Source: Octopus vulgaris
Lineage: Eukaryota
Assembly (NCBI GenBank): GCA_951406725.2
Contig: OX597822.1
Location: 69,750,001 to 69,814,000, forward strand
Direction of reading: 5' to 3'
DNA length: 64,000 nt
In this document: positions 3,639 to 47,430 of the stretch, in pieces
How positions within the stretch are numbered: position 1 is the stretch's first letter
Layout of the letters: every line of letters starts with the position of its first letter
Translations under genes and position numbers: made by a program
The notes under the pieces: model-generated
The model's input: the letters and a program-made list of their open reading frames with translations, nothing else
Databases searched by the model: none
Told to the model about the DNA's origin: nothing

Positions 3639-4725
3639 CTGAAATTGAAGAGAATATATTTTGAACTGAAACAAAAGCCATGCTACATCTTGGCAAGAAA
3701 AAGGCTCAGGGAACACTACAAAGGATTAACCACAGGACATCCTCCATCACCATCACGCTTAAGAGAAGTGCAGCTGCTTCAACTTTGTTTTAATGTCTCC
3801 TTTTCCATGCTTGCAGGTGTCAGCTGGAGTTTATTGAGGCAGATTACCTATTGTTGGATGCCTTTCCTGTTGCCAGCCTTTTACTGGTTTCCAAGCAAGG
3901 TAATATTTCCCCATGACAAGACATGTTTTCTTTGGAAGAGTAGAAATGAACAATATCACTTGTAAGATGGTGATCCCCGTATACAACCATCACGTGATGT
4001 CAAGACAAAGATATGCAGAAACACACACACAAATTTCATTTGTTCCATTTAAGCATGGACAAGTGGACATTAACACATTAACTGCCACATGTACCATTGG
4101 TAGCTCATTGCAAACCTCACACAACCACCATATGCACCACCAGAGAAACATTTTCATAATTTGAGAAAATATTTTATTCTGTATCTTTGACTGGCTTTTG
4201 AGGATATTCAAATAAAAAGCACCCACTACACTCACGGAGTGGTTGGCGTTAGGAAGGGCATCCAGCTGTAGAAACATTGTCAGATAAGACTGGAGCCTGG
4301 TGCAGCCTTCTGGCTTCCCAGATCCCCGGCCGAACCGTCCAACCCATGCTAGCATAGAGAACGGACGTTAAACGATGATGATGATGATGAAAGTGAAATA
4401 TCAAAGTTCAATTATGAAATATTGTAAAAATGCAAAACAAATTATATTTCCTTGTAATTAAAAAGTATGTAGTGTGACTGTATAAAATACGCGACATCAC
4501 CATTAAGTTCCAGTAACAGGCCATGGTGATTAACATGTTTAATGATGATAATTAGAATGTGTTCGCTAGTTCTGTTAATGTAAGCACACAATACTATGCT
4601 CACTGTGCATCACGTAAGCTCACAATAACTGAACACGCTATAGCTACATCAGTCACAACATACGAGATCAAGATGTCAACCTAACAACCATACTATCATA
4701 AGATCAAATTTTACTAAAACTTATT

Positions 4726-5107
4726 TACATTATTTACATTTTACGGATATTTGTCGTCATCTTGTTAGTTGTTAACACAACGTTTCGGCTGATATACCCT
4801 CCAGCCTTCATCAGGTGTCTTGGAGAAATTTCGAACTAGGGTTCTATTTCCTAAGGTATTTTTCGATGTTATTATTATTATTCCAGGTCACTGCCTGGAA
4901 TTGAACTCGGAATCTTGGGGTTAATAGCCCACGCTCTTAATCACTATGCTATATGCCCGCCCTTGGGTATATGGCATAGTGGATAAGACACCTGATGAAG
5001 GCTGGAGAGTATATCAGCTGAAACGGTGTGTTAACAACAAGATGAGGACAAATATCTGTCAAATGTAAATAATGTACATAATTCCTCATCTCTTAAATAT
5101 AGAACTG
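4726..5107. mobile_element. Fold-back Penelope-like non-autonomous element with a tRNA-like segment and a hammerhead motif
   Basis: Inverted arms at ~4726-4821 and 4985-5076, plus a ~30-nt tail. Imperfect TSD tttactaaaacttatt (4710-4725) / tttactaaagctatt (5110-5124). tRNA-like A and B boxes on the minus strand at ~4882-4958. Confidence 0.7.
4774..4819 (-). ncRNA. Minimal type I hammerhead ribozyme
   Basis: GACAC-CUGAUGA-A-GGCUG(gagggtatat)CAGCC-GAAA-CG-UU-GUGUU, with palindromic stem III AACGUU. A mutated copy lies on + at 4987-5032 (GAAACGGT). Confidence 0.8.
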
Positions 5108-5511
5108 TATTTACTAAAGCTATTGTGTTGTGATTCTTGGTAATGTAAGTACCCTTACTTTAATTGCCAAACTACCAACAGATTTCTATCCATTCCAATG
5201 ATCAGCAGTAATAAAAACACCCAATTTCAAAAACATATTTCATCCAATGATATGCAATTACCCTAATTTTGAAAACTCACCCACCCATTAAAATAAATGT
5301 AAAACAAGAAACTTTTAAGGACCAAAACCTTAACTTAGATTTTACAGGATTAAGCAGACAAAAGTGACACAGTACCAATTCCACTTGCCCTCTTATAATT
5401 TCTAATAAAAGAAATGCTCACAGAAATATCTCCTTCGGTACAATGATTAACACAAGTTACTATTATCATCAACATTAAGATTTTTATTAATTGGTGAGAA
5501 AATATATTTAC

Positions 5512-16164: not shown

Positions 16165-19060
16165 TGTCAGCCAGAAGCTGAGGCCATACTGGTGCAACAC
16201 CTTTACTGCATCTGGGGACTTTTCCAGTATTGCTTCTGGTGACGTAGCAAGTTAGACATTGCTGCTCTTCTTTGTGCCTCCTGCCGCAATGTGACTTCCT
16301 CATGTTTTTTGAAGACTTCCATGTCTATACCTAGCAGATCCCTGATGTTCTGTGGTAGGGCATTAAAAAGTTGTGGTCCCTTGCACCCCAAGCTATTACA
16401 GTATTGGGTTCGTATCCTCGATGGAGAAGATGGGACCTTTGGTACTGTGCCATGCTGTTCAGTTCAGAGATTGTAGATTTCAATTCTGAAATTTGGAGCC
16501 AGACCCACCATTATTTTCAACACGTATAGCACTGTATATCTCTCACGTTTCCTCTCCAGGGAGTAGAGTCACAGTTCCCTCAATCTCTTCCGGTAGCTCC
16601 TGTGTTTTACTGAGTCTATCATCTTTGTGAAGTGACATTGGATCGCTTCTAGTTCCGCAATTAGTTTTTTACAATCTGTGGGGACCACAGTTGGGAGCAG
16701 TAGTCCAGACAACTGAGGACAAAGGTTCTCTAAAGCAGAAGCTTTGTGTCTTTGTTCCTGGTCTTAAAGGATCTAAGGATCCAACCTGCCACCCGCCTGC
16801 ATACTGTTGCCATCTGAGCAATGTGCACATGGAAAATTGCATCACTGCTCATGTGGATTCCCAGGTCATGCACTGACTAAATCTCTGATTACACTGCCTG
16901 CTGGTCCCATGTACTTCACCTGTAGTTTGTTTGTGGGCTGATAGCAGAGTGCTTGAAATTTTGCACCTTTGAACAGCATATTATCCTCATCAGCCCATTT
17001 ATATGTTGTGTCCGGGTCATTCTGCAGTCTTAGGATGTCAGTAGGATCCTTGACCACCTGTGATACTTTTGTATCATTGGTGTAGCTGGTGAGTGTGAGG
17101 GCATGTCCAAAAGAGCAACCACAAACAGTAGTGGACCCAGTACTGTCCCCCGGGGGACTCCACTGAGGATTGGTGCCACTTCAGAGAGAGCATCATTTGC
17201 TGTGACAGCCTGACTTCTGCCCCTTAAGAAATCATGCAGCCACATACCAAGGTCACGAAATTTGTGACATATCACCCCATGCCTGACTTTGTCAAACACC
17301 TTTGGCAAAGTTAAGATACATAACATCCACATTTGAATGGTTGAGCTGTAGTTTTAGTACCTAGTCGAAGTGTTGTAGTAGCTGTGTTAGGCAGCTCTGT
17401 CCAGGACAGAAATCATGTTGCACGTCTGTAAGCAAGTCATTTTCCTCTAGGAACATGGTCAGTCTTTTTCTGACAATGTGAGGTCAGAGAAATAGGACTG
17501 TAGTTTATAGCATCTACTCTGCTTCCTCCTTTGTGGACAGGGCAGGTTATTCCTTCTTTTAATATTTGAGGAAATGTACTGCATTCAAAGCAACTGGAAA
17601 TGCATTTGCAGTGGTTTTGCAAGAGCTCTCTTGCATGTTTTTAACAGAATTGCTGTGAGTCCATCAAGGCCTGTTGTAGAGTCTGGGTTTATCTCATCAA
17701 TGGCTGACAATACATCCTCCTATGTAAAGTTAATGTAATTGATAGTCACCTTTTTCTCTTGTAGGTAAGAGGTATTGAACTCATCAGGTCTGCTTATTTT
17801 CGGGCTTTCTAGTGGGGAGGTGAAAACACTTTGGAATTGTTTATTGAGTGCTTTACTTATCCTCCTGGGGTCTGCAGTCAGTGAGCCCTTTTCATTAAAC
17901 AGTGACCCTATCCTGTATCACACTGAGGCAGACTCTTCTGTGAACTTGTAGAAAGCTTTAGGCTTTCTTTTTATATTTTCCACTGCCCTGGCTTCTCTGT
18001 TTACCCTTTCTTTTTCATGGGAGAGCCTGATTTTATTCTGAGTCTCTAAGAGTGCCATTTTGAGGCAGGGCTTTTTGTTGTCATTAGGCTCCTTATTTAA
18101 GCAATTCGAGATCTTTATCCTCCATCTCATTAGGTTTCTTCTGTCTCGGGGAATAATGTTCTTATGCGTGGTGGCTTTCTTCTCTGGGACAAACATAATG
18201 CATATGGCTCGCATTATAGACATGAATTCATTGAATTTCATGTCAGGGTCTTGCATGGACAGACTTTTAAATCAGTTTTGTTGGAGTATCACTTTGTTGT
18301 TGAACTCCCAGTCAGCCTTGTAGAAGTTCAGGTTGGCTAGTGCTTGGGATCCAGCAGTGTTGTATGATTCTTTAATTAGCTTTGGACCATATTTTGACAC
18401 TTCTATCATGTTACGGTCTGAGTGGGTAGACGGTGATATGTTTATGCTGTGGATAAGGTCTATATTGTCTGTGAAGCAGAGATCCAGGATGTTGTTATTT
18501 CTGGTTGGGGAAAGTATGGTCTGCTCCATGAACATCATTTTCATGAGATCTACTAGAGATTCTACCTGCTTGCATTCCTTTCATGTCAGTCCTGAGGTTA
18601 TGACACCTTTGGGCCATCTAATGTTGGGGAAGTTGAAGTCACCCATCAGAAGTACCTTAAGGCAGTGGTCTAGGTTTGTAAGTACTTCTTTTATCTTTGT
18701 AAGACATTCCTCAAACTTACCATCATAGTTTGAGGCATCGGGTGGGCAGTATAATGTGCATATTACCACGTTAAGTTGCTTTAGATGTACTATGAGTGTG
18801 TCGCAGACTGCATTCGAATGTGACAGCAGTGTCAATGCTGTAACATCATCATGCATGTACATTGCAACTCCACCATGGCTTCTCTCTTTTCTGTCTGTAT
18901 AGAACACAGTATACATTGGTACATGTATCTCTACAGACAGATGAGTCTCTCTGAGTGCAATGCATATAGCTTGATTGCATGCAGACAGTTCTCCCAGGTA
19001 TGCAATTTTGCTCTTGCTGTTGTTTTGCAAACGGCCTCTGTTGTTCATCAGTAGAATTTG
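16165..19060 (-). mobile_element. Degenerate CR1/L2-like LINE (APE endonuclease plus reverse transcriptase)
   Basis: Endonuclease motifs ETHL, SHGGVAMY, LMGDFNFPNIRW, PTRNNNILDLCFT, SDRNMI. RT motifs YSPISLTSH, FDKVRHG, SGVPRGTVLGPLLF, WADEDNMLF. Many frameshifts. Confidence 0.9.
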
Positions 19061-19214
19061 TGAGTATATATATTTATGTGTGTGTGTGTGTGTGTGTGTA
19101 TACATATATACACACATGGCGGTGCCCCAGCATGGCCACAGCTCGTGAGCTGAAACTAGATAAATAAAAAAAAATAAAATAAAATAAAAAAATAAAAATA
19201 AAAATATATTTATA

Positions 19215-20316
19215 CACACCATAAAAACCCATGTAATTTATGCACTTTTTTTCACAAAAATAAATATAAACTTTAGGGAGTGCATAAACTACACAAATAG
19301 ATCGTTTCCAGAATTTGTTTTGAAATTTTTGTTGTTGAAAAAAGATGTACAAAACGTAAACATTTGTACCGGAAGTTGACTCATTTAATGTCAGAATAGG
19401 TTTTTACAGAAAAAATGGCTTAAACACGCATAAAGAAGTTGACTTTTATTTATGTTGGATGGTATAATGCTTACTTTTTCTCTATAAATTTACCCAAACC
19501 ATTAAATGTTTAACTAGTTTTTGAAGTCTAACATTCATGGTGGTAAACAGAGTCCAGGTCATATTTTACATTGCTTGGAGTTTCTACCTATCGCAATGGA
19601 GTGCATATTTAATTTCTCCTTCGCAGCAAATGAGTCATAAGTTCTGCCTATGCTGACAATAACAGTAATGATAAATTTTAAAGTTTGCTTGACGTTTTAT
19701 AAGTGTGAAACGGATTAAAATTTCAATACTCCATATCAAAGGTTTTGACAAGAAAAAGCAGAAAATCAGAGCTTTGAGATAAGAAGACACTTTCGACCAA
19801 TCAGAATTCTGTTTACATACTCAATTTGATCGATCACCTTCCTCTGTCAGTTGAGTAACCTGTCATCCAAGCTGATGTTTATTGGTAATTAAACTTAATT
19901 TGCAACACCTGTGCGTATTTATCAGCCTCACTTTTGTTGGTAATTCTTAACAACTTTTCCTGTGACCGTGATTTGAGAAGACATACAGCAGTATGCTAAA
20001 GAATGGACATAATCTCCCATGGGCAAGTAATGTAAAATAAAGTTTATTATAAACAACACAAACACTTTGTAATTTAATAGCTTTCAATGTGGTACCTGTT
20101 ACAGAGAAATTATTTTTATTTACTGAAACTTTAATAAAATCTAATAAGTGAAATTATGGTAAAAACAACTAAATTGGAAACCTTTTTTCTCTGGCAATAT
20201 CAGCAATTCTGAAAACATTTAAGTGGGAATTTCACCTGAGTAGAAGCATTTTTTTAAAGAAATAATCATTTGCATAAATTATACAGATGCACAAATTACA
20301 TGGGTTTTTAAGTGTG
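19215..20316. mobile_element. Non-autonomous DNA transposon (Tc1/mariner-pogo-type TIRs)
   Basis: ~30-bp imperfect TIRs cacaccataaaaacccatgtaatttatgca / tgcacaaattacatgggtttttaagtgtg, with subterminal tgcataaa repeats. Confidence 0.6.
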
Positions 20317-22339: not shown

Positions 22340-23300
22340 ATACCTCTCTCTCTCACTCAAATTATATACCTCACACTCTCTCTCTCACTCGCTCAAATTA
22401 CATGTCTCCCTTCCTCGCTCAACTTATACGTCTCCCCTTCTCGCTCAACTTATACGTCTCCCCTTCTCGCTCAACTTATACGTCTCCCCTTCTCGCTCAA
22501 ATTATGCGTCTCCCCTTCTCGCTCAAATTATGCGTCTCCCCTTCTCGCTCAACTGATACGTCTCCCCTTCTCGCTCAATTGATACGTCTCCCCTTCTCGC
22601 TCAAGTGATACGTCTCCCCTTCTCGCTCAACTGATACGTCTCCCCTTCTCGCTCAACTGATACGTCTCCCCTTCTCACTCAAATTATATGTCTCCCTTTC
22701 TTGCTTAAGTTCTCTCTCTCTTAAATTATATATATCTCTCTCTCACTCAAATTATATATCTCTCTCTCTCTCACTCAAATTATATATATATATATCTCTC
22801 TCTCACTCAAGTTACATATTTCTCTCTCTCGCTCAAGTTATCTCTCTCTCTTGCTCAAGTCATATCTCTCGCTCTCTCTTGCACTCGCTCAAGTCATATC
22901 TCTCTCTCTCTCTCTCTTGCTCAAGTCATATCTCTCTCTCTCTCTCTCCAGTCATATATCTCTCACTCACTCAAGTCATATATCTCTCACTCACTCAAGT
23001 CATATATCTCTCACTCACTCAAGTCATATATCTCTCACTCACTCAAGTCATATATCTCTCACTCACTCAAGTCATATATCTCTCACTCACTCAAGTCGTA
23101 TATCTCTCACTCACTCAAGTCATATATCTCTCACTCATTCAAGTCATATATCTCTCACTCATTCAAGTCATATATCTCTCACTCACTCAAGTTAAATATC
23201 TCTCTCTCACTCAAGTTATATATCTCTCTCTCACTTCAGTTATATATATCTCTCTCACTCAAGTTATATATATCTCTCTCACTCAAGTTATATCCCTCTC

Positions 23301-23310
<10 letters not shown>
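22340..23310 (+). repeat. Compound minisatellite: 26-nt unit tctcgctcaactgatacgtctcccct, then 24-nt unit agtcatatatctctcactcactca
   Basis: Tandem units are directly visible and account for the repetitive spurious ORFs here. Confidence 0.9.
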
Positions 23311-23331
<21 letters not shown>

Positions 23332-24913
23332 GGTTATAAAATGAGATAGGGGTTGAAAATTCAACCCACCATGGGATAATATATATCCAATATACTGCCA
23401 GATAGGTACCCAACAAGACTAATACATAGATGTTAAAAATTGTCAAACAATCAGTTCATCTATTGTATTATATGGGTAAAGGTAATAATATTACCGTAAA
23501 TTAATACTACAAAATTAGAGAATGGAGAAACATACTTAAATCAATAAAACATCAACTATCAGATGATACCCAATCAATACTTTAATACACCATTACATAT
23601 CAGTAAAGGCATTATACAAAATATACAGTAAGAGTAAATAGACAAAGAGATATAAGTAAAAAATTTCAAATATAATATGTAATTAAATCAAATCTGACAG
23701 CTGTTTCGGCAGTGAGGGCAGTCATACCTCATTTAACCTATAAGCCATAAAGGCAGGTATAAATGGCAGGCATTAACAAGGATGCCCCACGGCCTCTTCA
23801 GAGAATTAAATTAAATTTGTTATAATTGTGAAAAATATTATTTAACCATATACATATAAATATAAAAATATAAAAATGTAAAATATAAAAACTTATACAT
23901 CATAATGCTACACTTATATAATATAATACTCATTGGTACAATAATGGAAGGTAAACAGAACAAAATAAAACAAAATATATATCAGTGTATATATTAATAT
24001 TAATAAGCACCGATATTATACATATTTGGCTAATAGTTTTTTAAAAAAACTAACACATAGGGAGATGAAAAATAATAATTAAAACCATGGTTCAGTTCAT
24101 AAAATTATAAAGCTATAAAAGTTAATAAAAATTACTATTAATATTAATAATAATAATAATAATAATAATAGATACAGTTATGTTTGCACCAAGTCCATCC
24201 TATCAAGATTCGATCTTGATAGGATGGACTTGGTGCAAACATAACTGTATCTATTATTATTATTATTATTATTATTAATATTAATAGTAATTTTTATTAA
24301 CTTTTATAGCTTTATAATTTTATGAACTGAACCATGGTTTTAATTATTATTTTTCATCTCCCTATGTGTTAGTTTTTTTAAAAACTATTAGCCAAATATG
24401 TATAATATCGGTGCTTATTAATATTAATATATACACTGATATATATTTTGTTTTATTTTGTTCTGTTTACCTTCCATTATTGTACCAATGAGTATTATAT
24501 ATATATAAGTGTAGCATTATGATGTATAAGTTTTTATATTTTACATTTTTATATTTTTATATTTATATGTATATGGTTAAATAATATTTTTCACAATTAT
24601 AACAAATTTAATTTAATTCTCTGAAGAGGCCGTGGGGCATCACTTGTTAATGCCTCATTTATACCTGCCTTTATGGCTTATAGGTTAAATGAGGTATGAC
24701 TGCCCTCACTGCCGAAACAGCTGTCAGATTTGATTTAATTACATATTATATTTGAAATTTTTTACTTATATCTCTTTGTCTATTTACTCTTACTGTATAT
24801 TTTGTATAATGCCTTTACTGATATGTAATGGTGTATTAAAGTATTGATTGGGTATCATCTGATAGTTGATGTTTTATTGATTTAAGTATGTTTCTCCATT
24901 CTCTAATTTTGTA
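23332..24913. mobile_element. Penelope-like element forming a ~1.4-kb near-perfect palindrome, inserted in (TA)n
   Basis: Arms at 23508-24209 and 24213-24913 around a 3-nt loop (tcg), differing only by small indels that I could see. 176-nt tail at 23332-23507. Same family recurs at 51137-51310 and 61594-62069. Confidence 0.8.
24615..24731 (+). ncRNA. Type I hammerhead ribozyme with long stem II (mirror copy on - at 23690-23807)
   Basis: aattct-CTGAAGA(24621-24627)-ggc.gtggggca..tgcctcattta..taaatgaggta..tgccctcac.gcc-GAAA(24714-24717)-CAGCTG-TC|agattt. Palindromic stem III; GUC cleavage triplet. Confidence 0.8.
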
Positions 24914-24945
<32 letters not shown>

Positions 24946-25735
24946 CACTCTCACTCAAATTATATATCCCTCTCTCTCACTCAAATTATATATCCCTCAT
25001 TCTCACTCAAATTATATATCCCTCATTCTCACTCAAATTATATATCCCTCATTCTCACTCAAATTATATATCCCTCTCACTCTCTCTCAAATTATATATC
25101 TCTCTCTCACTCAATTTACATATATCTCTTCTCACTCAAGTTACATATTTCTCTCTCTCACTCAAGTTATCTCTCTCTCTTGCTCAAGTCATATATATCT
25201 CTCTCTCTCACACACAAGTCATATCTCTCTCTCTCTCCAGTCATATATCTCTCTCTCACTCAAGTTATATATCTTTCTCTCACTCAAGTTATATCCCTCT
25301 GTTTCATATATATATCCCTCACTCTCACTCAAATTATATATCCCTCATTCTCACTCTAATTATATATCCCTCTCACTCTCTCTCAAATTATATATCCCTC
25401 TCACTCTCTCTCAAATTATATATCTCTCTCTCTCACTCAAATTATATATATATATCTCTCTCTCACTCAAATTATATATATATATATCTCTCACTCAAAT
25501 TATATATATATATCACTCTCACTCAAATTATATATATATATCACTCATTCAAATTATATATATATATCACTCATTCAAATTATATATATATATCACTCAT
25601 TCAAATTATATATATATATATATATATATCTTTCACTCAAATTATATATCTCCATCTCATTCAAATTATATATATCTCTCACTCAAATTATATATATCTC
25701 TCTCTCACTCAAATTATCTCCCTCTCTCTCTCTGA

Positions 25736-25775
<40 letters not shown>

Positions 25776-25890
25776 GTCTGGTGCTGCCATCTGGTTCGCC
25801 AGACCTCGGTCAAATCGTCCAACCCATGCTAGCATGGAAAGCGGACGTTAAACAATGATGATGATATATATCTCACTCAGATTATATCTT
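24914..25890 (+). repeat. Continuation of the ctcactcaa(a/g)ttatat minisatellite
   Basis: Tandem variable units. Blocks 25131-25316 partly duplicate 22801-22865 and 23282-23310. Confidence 0.85.
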
Positions 25891-26499
25891 TCTCTCAATG
25901 TTTGAATATTTACACCATATATAACACTGACCTGTATGCCAGAATTGTAAACCCATTACTACAGCAACAAAATGCTTTATATATCATCAGAGAAATTGTT
26001 TGAGAAACAGATGTTTTTCTTAATGTTGTGACTTAAGCTCTGAAGTAAGAACAATAATAACTGCAGGTTGGTGATCCAAGACATGTGCAAAGATTTTTAA
26101 TTCTTCGACACTATTTAGATTTAAAACAAAAACATTTTGTTGATGACGCCAACAAATACAGTAATCGAATGATATCAGAAATTATAAGCACCAATTTGAG
26201 ACAGAAAAGATCAGCCTTACTGCTAATGCTAAGTGACTGACAATTTATTTTATGAAGATGAAAGAGGGAGAGAGAGGGGAATTGTATGGAGACAGTGAAG
26301 CATGCACAAGAAAGAGAGTGTAAGAGAGCAAATGAAGGAAAACTGAATGAGAGGATGAAAGAGAGGTAAGAGAAATGAGAATGAGAAAGATAATGGACCG
26401 AGAGAGAGAGATGTGAGAGTGAGAAAGGAAAACGCAAGTGAGAGATTACATGAGATAACGTAATTGAAAGAAGTGAGATGGAAAGATAATGTGAGATAT

Positions 26500-26990
26500 A
26501 TATATATATATATAGTGTGAGTGAGAGAGAGACAATTTGACTGAGTGAGAGAGATATGAGAGAGAGATAGATAATTTGACTGAGAGAGAGATAATTTGAA
26601 TTAGAGATAAATGGAGTGAGAGAGAGATAATTTTAGTGTGAGAGAGAGATAATTTCAGTGACAGAGAGATAATTTGAGAGCGAGAGAGAGAGATAATCTG
26701 AGTGAGGGAGAGAGATCATTTGAGTGCGAGATAATTTGAGTGAGAGAGACAAATAATTTGAGTGAAAGAGAGAGATAACTTGAGTGAAAGAGAGAGATAA
26801 CTTGAGTGAAAGAGAGAGATAACTTGAGTGAAAGAGAGAGATAACTTGAGTGAAAGAGAGAGATAACTTGAGTGAAAGAGAGAGATAACTTGAGTGAAAG
26901 TGAAAGATAATTTGAGTGGGAGAGAAAGAGGTAATCTGAGAGAGAGAGAGAGATATATAATTTGAGAGAGAGAAAGAGATATGTGAGCAA
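26500..26990 (-). repeat. Same minisatellite motif in the opposite orientation (22-nt unit gagagagataacttgagtgaaa)
   Basis: Reverse complement of the tcactcaagttatctctctc motif seen at 22.3-25.9 kb. Confidence 0.85.
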
Positions 26991-27246
26991 AGGAAATATA
27001 TACAAAATGTAGGAGAGACTTTGTGAGAGTAAGAGAAATTATGAGAAAGAGAGGATGTGAATGGAAGAGACAGATAATGTGAATGAGAGGAGGAGAAAGA
27101 TGTGAATGAGAGAGAGAAAATGCAAGACAAAAACAACACAAGTGAAACAGAGATAAAGAGAGAGAGAAAGTAAATGTAAGAGAGATAATGTGACTGAAAG
27201 AGAGATAATGTAAATGAAAGCAAGAGAAAAAAAACTATTTCCTTAC

Positions 27247-27375
27247 TTTAAGTATACGCCCACTGAGGCCAGTAATTTCATTCTGATTAACTTCAACAAC
27301 AGTTGATGTGTCAACATCTCCAGAACCTGTTGTATCGATGAGATCAAGAATTTTGGGTTTGCCATCACTGGTTAC
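27247..27375 (-). CDS. TPP2: TPP2 exon 2 ([43 protein letters not shown])
   Basis: ttgcag acceptor and AAA|gtaagg donor; 129 nt, phase 0/0. Contains the TPP2 motif [15 protein letters not shown]. Confidence 0.96.
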
Positions 27376-28290
27376 CTGCAAGAGAAACAATTTTGGGGTG
27401 ATGAAAATAAGAAACACTCATGGACATGACAGAAAGATATTGTTAAAAGCTGTTAAAAGAAGATTTATTCAAAGGAGACATTTGAAAATCATGATTAATG
27501 CCTTGCCTGAACTGATAAATAAATAAATGAAGAAAGATCAGCACGTAAAAGCACCCACTACACTCTCAGAGTGGTTGGCATTAGGAAGGGCATCCAGCTG
27601 TAGAAACTCTGCCAGATCAGATTGGAGCCTGTTGCAACCATCTAGTTCGCTAGTCCTCAGCCAAATCGTCCAACCCATGCTAGCATGGAAAGCGGATGTC
27701 AAACAATGATGAGGATGATGAATAGGCACAGATGTTGCTATGTGTTTAAGAAGTTTGCTTTTCAACCACATGGTTTTAGGTTCAGTCCCACAATATGGTG
27801 CATCATAGCCCTAGGTTCAACTAAAGCCTTATGAATGGATTTGGTAGACAGAAAACTGTAAGCCCATCCTTATGTGTGTGTGTATGTGTTTCCTTCTCTT
27901 GACATCACGTGACAGGTGTAAATGGTTGTCACTGTCAAACAAGCAGTGTCATTCATTTCCAATATTCTGCAAACATGTCTGGCCATGGGAAATATGACCC
28001 TGCCTGGAAACAGGTGAAGCTTGGCAACAGGAAGAGCATCTGGCCAGAGAAAATCTGTCTTTTTTTTTTTTTTTACTTGTTTTAGTCATTTGACTGTGGC
28101 CATGCTGGAACACCACCTTTAGTCAACCAAATCAACCCCAGGACTTATTTTTTGTAAGCCCAGTACTTATTCTATCGGTCTCTTTTGCCGAGCCGCTAAG
28201 TTACGGGGATGTAAACACACCAGCATCGGTTGTCAAGCGATGTTGGGGGAACAAACACAGACACACACATACATATATATGTATATATAT

Positions 28291-28634
28291 ATATTAATAA
28301 AAGGAATTCCAACCTTGTCTGATTTTCACGTTTTATTTACAATCTTATAATGATATAATATAATATAATATAATAAAATAAAATAGTAGAATGTTAAATG
28401 TTCATTCTGATTGAACTAGTACTTTCATGCATTAAATTCTGCAATCTTCAGGTTCATGTAGTAGTGGTGACAGTCATGCTTCACATTCAATCAGAATGAA
28501 CATTTAACATTCTACTATTTTATTTTATTATATTATATTATATCATTATAAGATTGTAAATAAAACGTGAAAATCAGACAAGGTTGGAATTCCTTTTATT
28601 AATATATTCTTCTATACACAATCACACACACCCG
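28291..28634. mobile_element. Fold-back Penelope-like element inserted in the internal (TA)n of a family-A SINE (28070-28935, minus)
   Basis: Arms at 28291-28415 and 28486-28605, plus a ~29-nt tail. The host SINE halves resume on both sides. Confidence 0.75.
28412..28456 (-). ncRNA. Minimal type I hammerhead ribozyme
   Basis: UGAAC-CUGAAGA-u-UGCA(gaauuuaa)UGCA-u-GAAA-GUAC-UA|GUUCA. Palindromic stem III AGUACU. U-U mismatch at the base of stem II. Confidence 0.72.
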
Positions 28635-28642
28635 TATATATA

Positions 28643-28681
<39 letters not shown>

Positions 28682-45104: not shown

Positions 45105-45925
45105 TGAGTAAGGTGATGATTGGCAACGAGTATAGTGAGGAGTTCCAGGTAGAAGTAGGAATCAATCACCAAGAATCAGTCCTCAACCCACTCTTATTCA
45201 TCATAGTCCTCCAGGCAATAACAGAGGAATTCAAGGCAGGATACCCCTGGGAGCTCCTCTATGCTGATGACCTTGCTCTAATTGCTGAGTCACTATCAGA
45301 AGTTTCAGGTGTGGAAACAAGGATTAGAATCGAAAGGCCTTAGAGTCAACCTAGCAAAAACCAAAGTCCTAGTAAGTAGGAAGGCAGACAAATCATAAAT
45401 CCCTTCAGGTAGATGGCTTTGCTCGATCTGTAGAAAAGGCGTAGGTAGAAACTCCATAAGATGTACCCAGTGTAAGCTATGGACACAAGAGGTGCAGCAA
45501 TATCAAAGGAAGGTTAACTGTGAAACTAGTTTTTGTGTGTTTGCAGATGCACAGGTGCAATAAACACCAAAGATGTACAGAAAACAGATTCCATCACATG
45601 CCAGGGGGAAAAACTAGAAGTAGTTGATAGCTTCTGTTACCTAGGTGACCAAGTTAGTAGCAGGGGTGGATGCTTTGAGAGTGTAGCTGCTAGAATAAGA
45701 ATAGCCTGGGCAAAGTTCAGAGAGCTTCTACCTCTGCTAGTAACAAAGGGTCTCTCACTCAGAGTGAAAGGTAGCCTGTACGATGCCTGTGTGCAAATAG
45801 CCATGCTACATGGCAGTGAAACATGGGCTGTGACTACTGAGGACATGCATAGGCTTGAAAAGAATGAAGCTGGTATGACCCGTTGGATGTGTAATGTCAG
45901 TGTGCATACACGACAGAGTGTAAGA
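45105..45925 (+). mobile_element. RTE-clade LINE fragment (RT C-terminal half)
   Basis: HQESVLNPLLFIIVLQAI..PWELLYADDLALIAES; LEVVDSFCYLGDQV..ARIRIAWAKFRELLPLL..LYDACV..MLHGSETWA. Confidence 0.9.
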
Positions 45926-47430
45926 ATATATTATCCAATGAATGTAGTTAAAGAACAACCTTATTTCTTAGTGAGGGGTCTGTTTACCTGCAACTCTTTC
46001 TTATAATAACAATCCACCAATAAAGCCTTGCATTCACCACACGTTTCATAATTCTTATACAGACCTCAAGAGGTCTTCTATTTGTTCTACATTGCTTCAT
46101 TCCACTCCACACTACACCATGAAGGAGACTTTACATCAGGGGACTTCCAGTCTTTTCTGTTCTATTTATCCTCTAACAATTTTTTAAAAAAGTAAATTTA
46201 ATCCCAATCTGTTATGTTCACTAAGTTAAGTTCACATTTCTACCATGATAAAACAGGTATCAAAAAGGAAATTTAAAATGTTGCTTTCAAATTTATTATA
46301 AATTTAAATAACAATAAATATAGTATATGACTATGTTATTTCACTTATTTATAAACAAATGATGAACAAATGCCAGGACCAAATAAAGTCTTTCAAATCA
46401 GATTATATCATTAATAACAGTAATTAAAAAATATATACAATACAAATTATTAAATCCAAACTCAGAGAAAGGAACAAAAATTTTGTTTTAAATTTTCTTT
46501 TCAACTGCAGGATTTTAAAATTATAATTAAAATAAAAATATGTACAAATTCTGAATCAGCAAATTTATTTCCTGAGTAGGTTAAATTTACCTCATGGGGG
46601 TAAATTCACCCCAAGCTTGGGAAGTCCTGTTTTACATGATCCTTGGACCAACTAACAAAACCTCCCTCAAGCCACCCACTTGCTCTACTATCACAGGATG
46701 GTTACAGCTGGAACACATTTGATTGTAAGTCTACTTATCCAGACTGAACTGGAACTAAACAACACCACCACACAACATGAACCAACGAAGAAGCCTCATT
46801 GTGCTCATTTGACTTAATAGAAATAGCATCCATATCTTCCTCAATTCACTTAGCCACCCCATCAGAGAACATGGTTTGATCATAGGGTTGCATAATCAGA
46901 GCTGACCTGGGGCTAAACAGCAACATAGCACCACATGATATTGTAGCCATACTATACCATGGTATTATATTACCACATACTATGCTATATCATGATATTA
47001 CTGTACATCAGCACACATCTCACCATATATCACAGAGAAAGATATTTATCCACATCATATCCCTACCATTCCATAGTTTTTTTCTTGACTCATCAGGCTG
47101 ATTCCTCGGTTTCCATGACATATCAATGACCAAGATCACATTTTCCTTTGAATGGGACGCTGATCCTTCACAAGGTTGTTACTCATTTACAGTTGAACAG
47201 ACTACAACAACATGAAATTAAATATCTTGCTCAAAAGCACAACCCACTACCTGGTCCAGGAAACAAAACTGTGATCTTACAATCATGAGGATAACACCCT
47301 AACCACAAGGTCATATACTTTCATCTATCACACCTTGCATACCATATACCATTTCATATCATGGACCAGATTTGAGACTATGGACATTAAAACAATGGTG
47401 ATCATTATGTATAAATATGTACATATATAG

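Follow-up and report, generated by a model that had tools for sequence, protein, structure and literature searches.

The fold-back at 28289–28634 raises the question whether one of its arms was copied from an RNA that had been cut by its own ribozyme. In the window, by which we mean the whole stretch of 64,000 nucleotides analysed here, the initial annotation had described a minus-strand hammerhead with a predicted cut and a tail-bearing arm starting within 1 nt of the predicted scissile bond. Both observations are confirmed. The cleavage site of a hammerhead is given by the NUH rule and the predicted bond falls between 28417 and 28416. If the G just after the predicted cut (28416, minus strand) is taken as element position 0, the minus strand reads GAAAGTACTA up to the bond and GTTCAATCAGAATG beyond it, and the plus arm opens with TTCAATCAGAATG, that is, at position +1. 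With the preceding A, at 28485, the inverted arm already begins (element position −69). The features of the locus are collected in Table 1.

Table 1. Features in and around the fold-back (positions in the window; element positions relative to the predicted cut)
Feature	Position	Strand	Basis
Left-side target, (TA)n-rich	28269..28294		
Fold-back of Penelope-like element (PLE), arms head-to-head	28289-28634		Sequence and relatives
Tail-less inverted arm of PLE terminal repeat (pLTR), whole hammerhead inside, 5′ end = element position −69	28289..28485	-	
Minimal type I hammerhead (predicted)	28412..28456	-	Sequence; double-hammerhead cofold
Predicted scissile bond between CUA and G, 28416 = position 0	28416..28417	-	NUH rule
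Arm-to-arm junction, −69 joined to +1, microhomology absent	28485..28486		
Tail-bearing arm, 5′ end = +1	28486..28607	+	
PLE tail, on plus arm only (limits approximate)	28608..28634	+	
Right-side target, (TA)n	28635..28680		

The fold-back is a copy of an endonuclease-bearing (EN+) Penelope-like retrotransposon, a known type of element. A 21-nt anchor from the arms has 1,827 exact matches in the 2.8-Gb genome, which gives at least 1,827 arms; elsewhere in the 64-kb window no further copies of this element were found. The reverse transcriptase (RT) is recognized as Pfam RVT_1 in the relative L063 and by the motifs DKG, GTAMG, and YLDD in a tandem unit, and a GIY-YIG endonuclease at the C terminus (PF01541) scores above the cut-off in the relatives L062 and L063. 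In the tandem array L276 three cut sites are spaced 4,271 bp apart, a tandem order that gives pLTRs, and more arrays were seen elsewhere. The first open reading frame of this 4,271-bp tandem subfamily begins at +210, so that the ribozyme sits in the 5′ leader; the coding region of the one young tandem unit looked at is split over two frames. Ahead of the endonuclease the sequence CNDSRCGTC corresponds to the CX2-5CxxC linker between RT and EN which defines the Neptune clade (PMC8557442, in part), and has the form CxxxxCxxC known from Neptune. With the EN+ elements of the Penelope/Poseidon, Neptune, and Nematis groups (PMC8557442 and PMC3846280, both in part) the octopus element has in common the order of RT and GIY-YIG, tandem pLTRs, an inverted 5′-truncated copy, a tail on one arm, a pLTR that carries a hammerhead, motifs resembling TATA and Inr, and microsatellite targets. 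The inverted truncated copy and the one-ended tail are found in the window copy and at many other loci, but the window copy differs from these elements in that the coding part is absent. By analogy with the Anolis carolinensis element, the tail may be the stretch between two start sites of reverse transcription (cf. PMC11167929, in part). Three subfamilies can be distinguished. That of the window copy has the core CUGAAGA; in a young subfamily the core reads CCGAAGA, and in an older one it is intact. The U4C core (CCGAAGA, compare position 28450 of the window) is found in the young tandem-forming subfamily (L276–L278), and the U4C variant accounts for about 20–60% of the summed contig depth in four runs. 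The weaker U4C ribozyme did not halt the spread of this young subfamily.

The arms of the window copy (28289–28415 and 28486–28607) differ by nothing but a single 5-nt indel, and compared with the near-full-length copy L062 there are 0 mismatches over the 69 nt above the cut. It is therefore unlikely that a later G>A change masks a start at 0; masking by CpG decay was likewise judged unlikely, the copy being very young. Owing to the (TA)n target, a target-site duplication of the window copy is unreadable. No public contig bridging the 28485/28486 junction was found that would confirm it independently, and only six raw DNA reads could be placed. That a MITE-like unit is copied whole was ruled out, as the junctions vary between fold-backs. 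In another fold-back both arms (L174/L175) have in common a small deletion at the cut site, which means that either one arm is a copy of the other or a single template gave rise to both. The copies L181, L182, and L186 lack the whole ribozyme core between both strands of helix I.

The predicted ribozyme has helix I (UGAAC/GUUCA), a helix II of 4 bp, and the CUGANGA, GAAA, and NUH core of the minimal type I hammerhead, with CUGAAGA at 28451–28445 and GAAA at 28426–28423. The base of helix II carries a U.U instead of the pair G10.1-C11.1, which is described as highly conserved in minimal hammerheads (PMC4209133), and its activity, if any, is therefore likely low. A cofold of two copies adopts a double-hammerhead topology with a predicted duplex of the palindromic AGUACU in the helix III region (−18.6 versus −6.1 kcal/mol per monomer), and the window hammerhead is accordingly modeled to act as a dimer. 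The monomer fold is no better than that of shuffled sequences (z about 0), and Rfam gave no match in the 64-kb window, hammerhead included. The minimal hammerheads of metazoan PLEs (PMC4209133) have the same short helix I, a palindromic 15.2-16.2 region, a predicted dimer, and a weak monomer; the octopus ribozyme differs from them in its 4-bp helix II and in the U.U at 10.1/11.1 in place of G-C, and its family includes a large young U4C subfamily.

In order to see where the copies of the family end, arms were sampled with an exact 33-mer from close to the 3′ end. It has 506 matches, and 103 arms were analysed after removal of duplicates. The loci L001–L030, which were biased by a query containing the inversion, are excluded from this count; each of those that entered the test of the cut site described below was recaptured by later patterns. 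The same query had suggested that most copies share the start base of the window arm, an artefact of the inversion that it held, and these copies run intact through the ribozyme. The dominant 5′ end lies at −82..−74 and leaves the ribozyme intact (43/103 arms). A further 19/103 end at −786..−83 and another 19/103 extend at least 787 nt upstream, whereas 13/103 end at −73..−2, 2/103 at −1..+1, 5/103 at +2..+76, and 2/103 at the edge of the anchor. The dominant end opens with the Inr-like ACAGTC about 31 nt below the TATA-like TATTTAAG, and CCAAT boxes are found further up. Judged by these motifs, the peak at −82..−74 is likely to be the transcription start, at about −81; the pLTR of Penelope is known to hold a promoter (PMC2377424, in part). 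A peak at the start site with the ribozyme intact means that most of the short copies were made from uncut RNA.

For the neighborhood of the cut, arms were captured by patterns which combine the anchor +14..+34 with non-reference bases far upstream and which are blind to the position of the breakpoint. Three such patterns gave 82, 112, and 82 overlapping matches, and the tests rest on the matches listed. Intact copies with small indels, judged by eye, were left out of this set. From the 274 arms among the matches listed, those with sense-element flanks (internal deletions) and a further eight, picked by hand (L085, L144, L195, L200, L201, L214, L218, L251), were removed, which yielded 61 ends in −34..+11. 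L233, with an apparent end at +1, is an internal deletion and was not counted. In the null model each real flank was rejoined at random positions and passed through the same end caller. With the window copy excluded, 9/60 ends among the matches listed lie exactly at 0, compared with a null of 0.95 (0/20,000 simulations; any-position P=0.001), and every other position in −34..+11 has at most three ends among these matches. The initial annotation had proposed a family-wide plot of truncation points, with a sharp peak at the cut as support and an even spread as refutation. The spread is not even and a sharp peak at exactly 0 exists, but it is small and the dominant end is the one 74–82 nt upstream.

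The excess becomes weaker in subsets of the matches listed. Without snap-backs 6/48 ends are at 0 (P=5e-5, any-position P=0.05), among solo copies 4/30 (P=6.5e-4; with an any-position P of 0.25 this peak would be lost if all positions were searched), and without the snap-backs and the ambiguous L007 and L100 4/46 (P=0.006, any-position P=0.70). The flanks differ among the nine zero-end copies and searches with direct patterns for ends at 0 gave no further copies, the seven extra matches of a short pattern being due to chance; thus about 0.5% of the arms end at the cut, whereas for the start site the share is about 40%. The loci of the four solo zero-end copies contain no upstream element sequence elsewhere. 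In L190 a 24-nt hairpin stands before G0; it is unique in the genome, and Rfam does not support it as a histone stem-loop.

We suggest that rare copying of self-cleaved RNA causes the excess at 0 in the family, a reading which we regard as probable, with reservations. Against it speak the ribozyme itself, which is without G10.1-C11.1, the presence of one zero-end copy (L206) in the U4C subfamily, and RNA-seq reads of the Anolis element, which neither begin nor end at the cut (PMC11167929, in part).

One alternative is that the peak arises by chance from uneven end-joining, with ends gathering at microhomologies or TA matches and position 0 being picked out by the hypothesis. Ends are indeed uneven: in the region −61..−33 position −60 alone has 6/30 ends, versus a null of 0.92 (52/65 zero-mismatch matches), five of these six being joined via a 7-nt microhomology. 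Because of this hot spot the uniform null overstates the significance at 0. The other end of helix I, at −40, was considered as a second peak and is not significant (2 versus 0.86 expected). Chance would also agree with the any-position P, which takes values of 0.05 to 0.70 when snap-backs or ambiguous cases are left out, and with the outcome of two attempts at replication. The first of these was a held-out test, fixed beforehand, on the older subfamily whose core is intact and whose hairpin is broken: 0/16 ends were at 0 with a null of 0.22 (30/42 matches), and at the 6/48 rate the chance of none is 0.12; in the other 12 of the 42 matches none was at 0 by eye. In the second attempt, on a second, older family with a ribozyme that is also present in the window, 2/51 ends were at 0 (null 0.79, P=0.19; 89 arms of 107 matches). 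This family has 12 ends at −2..+1 versus 4.9 expected, an interval which was chosen afterwards, overlaps the palindrome GTTAAC and is not counted. Both attempts are not significant and have low power. On the other hand, position 0 had been fixed in advance of the data, microhomology on the flank side is absent from the four solo ends at 0, and the end caller does not pile ends at 0 (null 0.9 per position). We hold chance to be a quite unlikely source of the peak.

A second alternative does without cleavage and invokes a hairpin in the DNA. GTTCA (0..+4) can pair with TGAAC (+12..+16), and a cDNA that was stopped or trimmed at 0 could prime itself on this local hairpin or be protected by it. 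Self-priming is an existing model for the palindromes of PLEs (PMC3846280, in part). At this hairpin three of the zero ends (L178, L184, L234) form perfect snap-backs, whose junction may fall on any position of 0..+4; the snap-back L211 lies at +1 in a subfamily whose stem closes at +1, and snap-backs were also found at other palindromes. Among the matches listed, zero ends other than snap-backs amount to 5/32 with an intact hairpin and 1/32 with a broken one (Fisher P=0.20). The cDNA hairpins which close at +8, +9, and −27 are stronger (pairing probability of the cDNA 3′ end 0.74–0.87, versus 0.22 at 0), yet there is no peak at these positions, and this weakens the hairpin reading without removing it. 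In addition, L206 ends at 0 although the stem of its U4C subfamily closes at +1, and the blunt fusion to rRNA described below would be left unexplained. The U4C change is reported to lower hammerhead activity in vitro, although in vivo it is enough for a viroid (PMC3088659, in part), so that the core of L206 does not discriminate. Altogether a hairpin without cleavage appears to us an unlikely cause of the excess.

The fusion to rRNA is found in L059 (G000:C1, about 173742917–173743260), a solo chimeric retrocopy in which large-subunit rRNA is joined to element position 0. Over the 192 nt immediately 5′ of G0 the sequence agrees to 98–99% with one in an 18-kb tandem array and in loci which Rfam calls large-subunit rRNA. 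Rfam missed the rRNA piece in L059 itself, and its identification comes from the genomic matches. The rRNA piece is in sense orientation to the element, the unit is flanked by (TA)n, and the joint is without microhomology; as the rRNA goes on with other letters and the upstream base of the element is absent, the joint is blunt. Among the 274 arms from the matches listed, L059 is the only one with rDNA within 450 nt upstream, the rDNA reference being part of the unit. Hammerhead cleavage leaves a 5′-OH. A template jump that set out from a 5′ end at 0 could have formed L059, as could ligation of RNA to the 5′-OH, and either would need an RNA end at 0; for this single case a template jump explains the structure equally well as an RtcB-type ligation. 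In the chimeric U6/L1 retrocopies, for which RtcB ligation to a 5′-OH has been described (PMC6789731, in part), a cellular RNA fragment is likewise fused in sense to the 5′ end of a retroelement; L059 differs in that it is one case and contains rRNA, not U6.

From these observations the following course may be proposed for the copying of self-cleaved RNA. The full-length relatives with RT and GIY-YIG and with 4,271-bp tandems carry the hammerhead in the 5′ leader. As in the Anolis PLE, the protein would bind near the tail and nick both strands of AT-rich DNA, and the cDNA would begin inside the RNA. The cDNA would then extend to the 5′ end of the RNA, usually at about −81 with the ribozyme uncut. 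Rarely the dimeric and probably protein-assisted ribozyme would cut first and the cDNA would stop at 0, a step which is in line with the statistics at this position. A cDNA ended at 0 could join the target or a second cDNA, or fold back on itself; one appears to continue into an rRNA fragment. A fold-back such as that of the window would likely arise by head-to-head joining of two short cDNAs, or by self-priming, in a (TA)n target.

For the window copy the answer is a different one. That a copy can be the cDNA of a 3′ cleavage product, as the initial annotation had supposed for the tail-bearing arm, fits the family at position 0 better than the arm for which it was proposed. There is no excess at +1 among the matches listed (1 end without the window copy, 1.8 expected), so that the match to within 1 nt is weak evidence, and the caution that a single case may be coincidence was justified. 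If the window copy were nevertheless such a cDNA, one base would have been lost at joining; its blunt junction and its place next to position 0, where the excess is real, would agree with this, whereas the background level at +1 and the young age of the copy, which makes a hidden substitution unlikely, argue against it. We consider this origin doubtful, and the window copy is more likely an ordinary truncation than a fossil of cleavage.

The hammerheads of PLEs have low activity in vitro and no in vivo evidence (PMC4209133), and for EN+ PLEs they have been considered as possibly parasitic (PMC8557442, in part). The closest comparison is with Poseidon of Anolis carolinensis (PMC11167929, in part). 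Both elements have a tail and AT-rich targets, and in both uncleaved RNA seems to be the chief template, which in octopus is in keeping with the main peak; the octopus ORF begins 210 nt below the cut, that of Anolis Poseidon inside the ribozyme. In vitro the Anolis element does not need cleavage, its ribozyme mutants being still inserted, and in octopus the ends at the cut make up the above-mentioned small share of the arms. Rare cleavage on productive templates fits this Anolis result and argues against a ribozyme that normally sets the 5′ end. R2 elements have an HDV-like ribozyme which sets the 5′ end, and this is their normal full-length end. A ribozyme cut as genomic 5′ end would be common to R2 and the octopus element, but in the latter it would be a rare side product. 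A literature search, which reached few subscription papers, gave no report of PLE 5′ ends peaking at the cut. Such a genomic peak would be indirect evidence for cleavage in vivo and would need just an assembly. A more general proposal would be that minimal PLE hammerheads cut RNA in the germ line and that genomes record this nucleotide-exactly, so that the ratio of cut to start-site copies (roughly 1 to 50–100) measures cleavage in vivo, and that cellular RNA, rRNA for example, can be fused to the freed 5′-OH end, which is then retrotransposed. We regard the case for this proposal as evenly balanced; if it is true, the ratio of ends could serve as a readout in any animal genome and for natural core variants.

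Hammerheads also occur in other elements of this genome. At 4700–5110 the window contains a fold-back of a second hammerhead family with cores at 4814 (minus) and 4992 (plus). This family has at least 4,437 matches and, above the ribozyme, a (TAA)n stretch and a head which looks tRNA-like by eye; ARAGORN called no tRNA in it. Its structure suggests a SINE-like element that may be moved by a PLE. A very young PLE family (L445–L468) has open frames of 781 aa, a hammerhead core of the U3-A8 type near the 3′ end, and long 3′ regions with CCAAT/TGACGT repeats, and its sequence past the cut is almost all A/T. Long minisatellite arrays of 20–22 bp, rich in GA/TC, occupy 22600–27250 of the window on both strands, and fragments resembling a LINE endonuclease or RT tail are seen by eye at 18581–19237 (minus) and 45530–46006 (plus).
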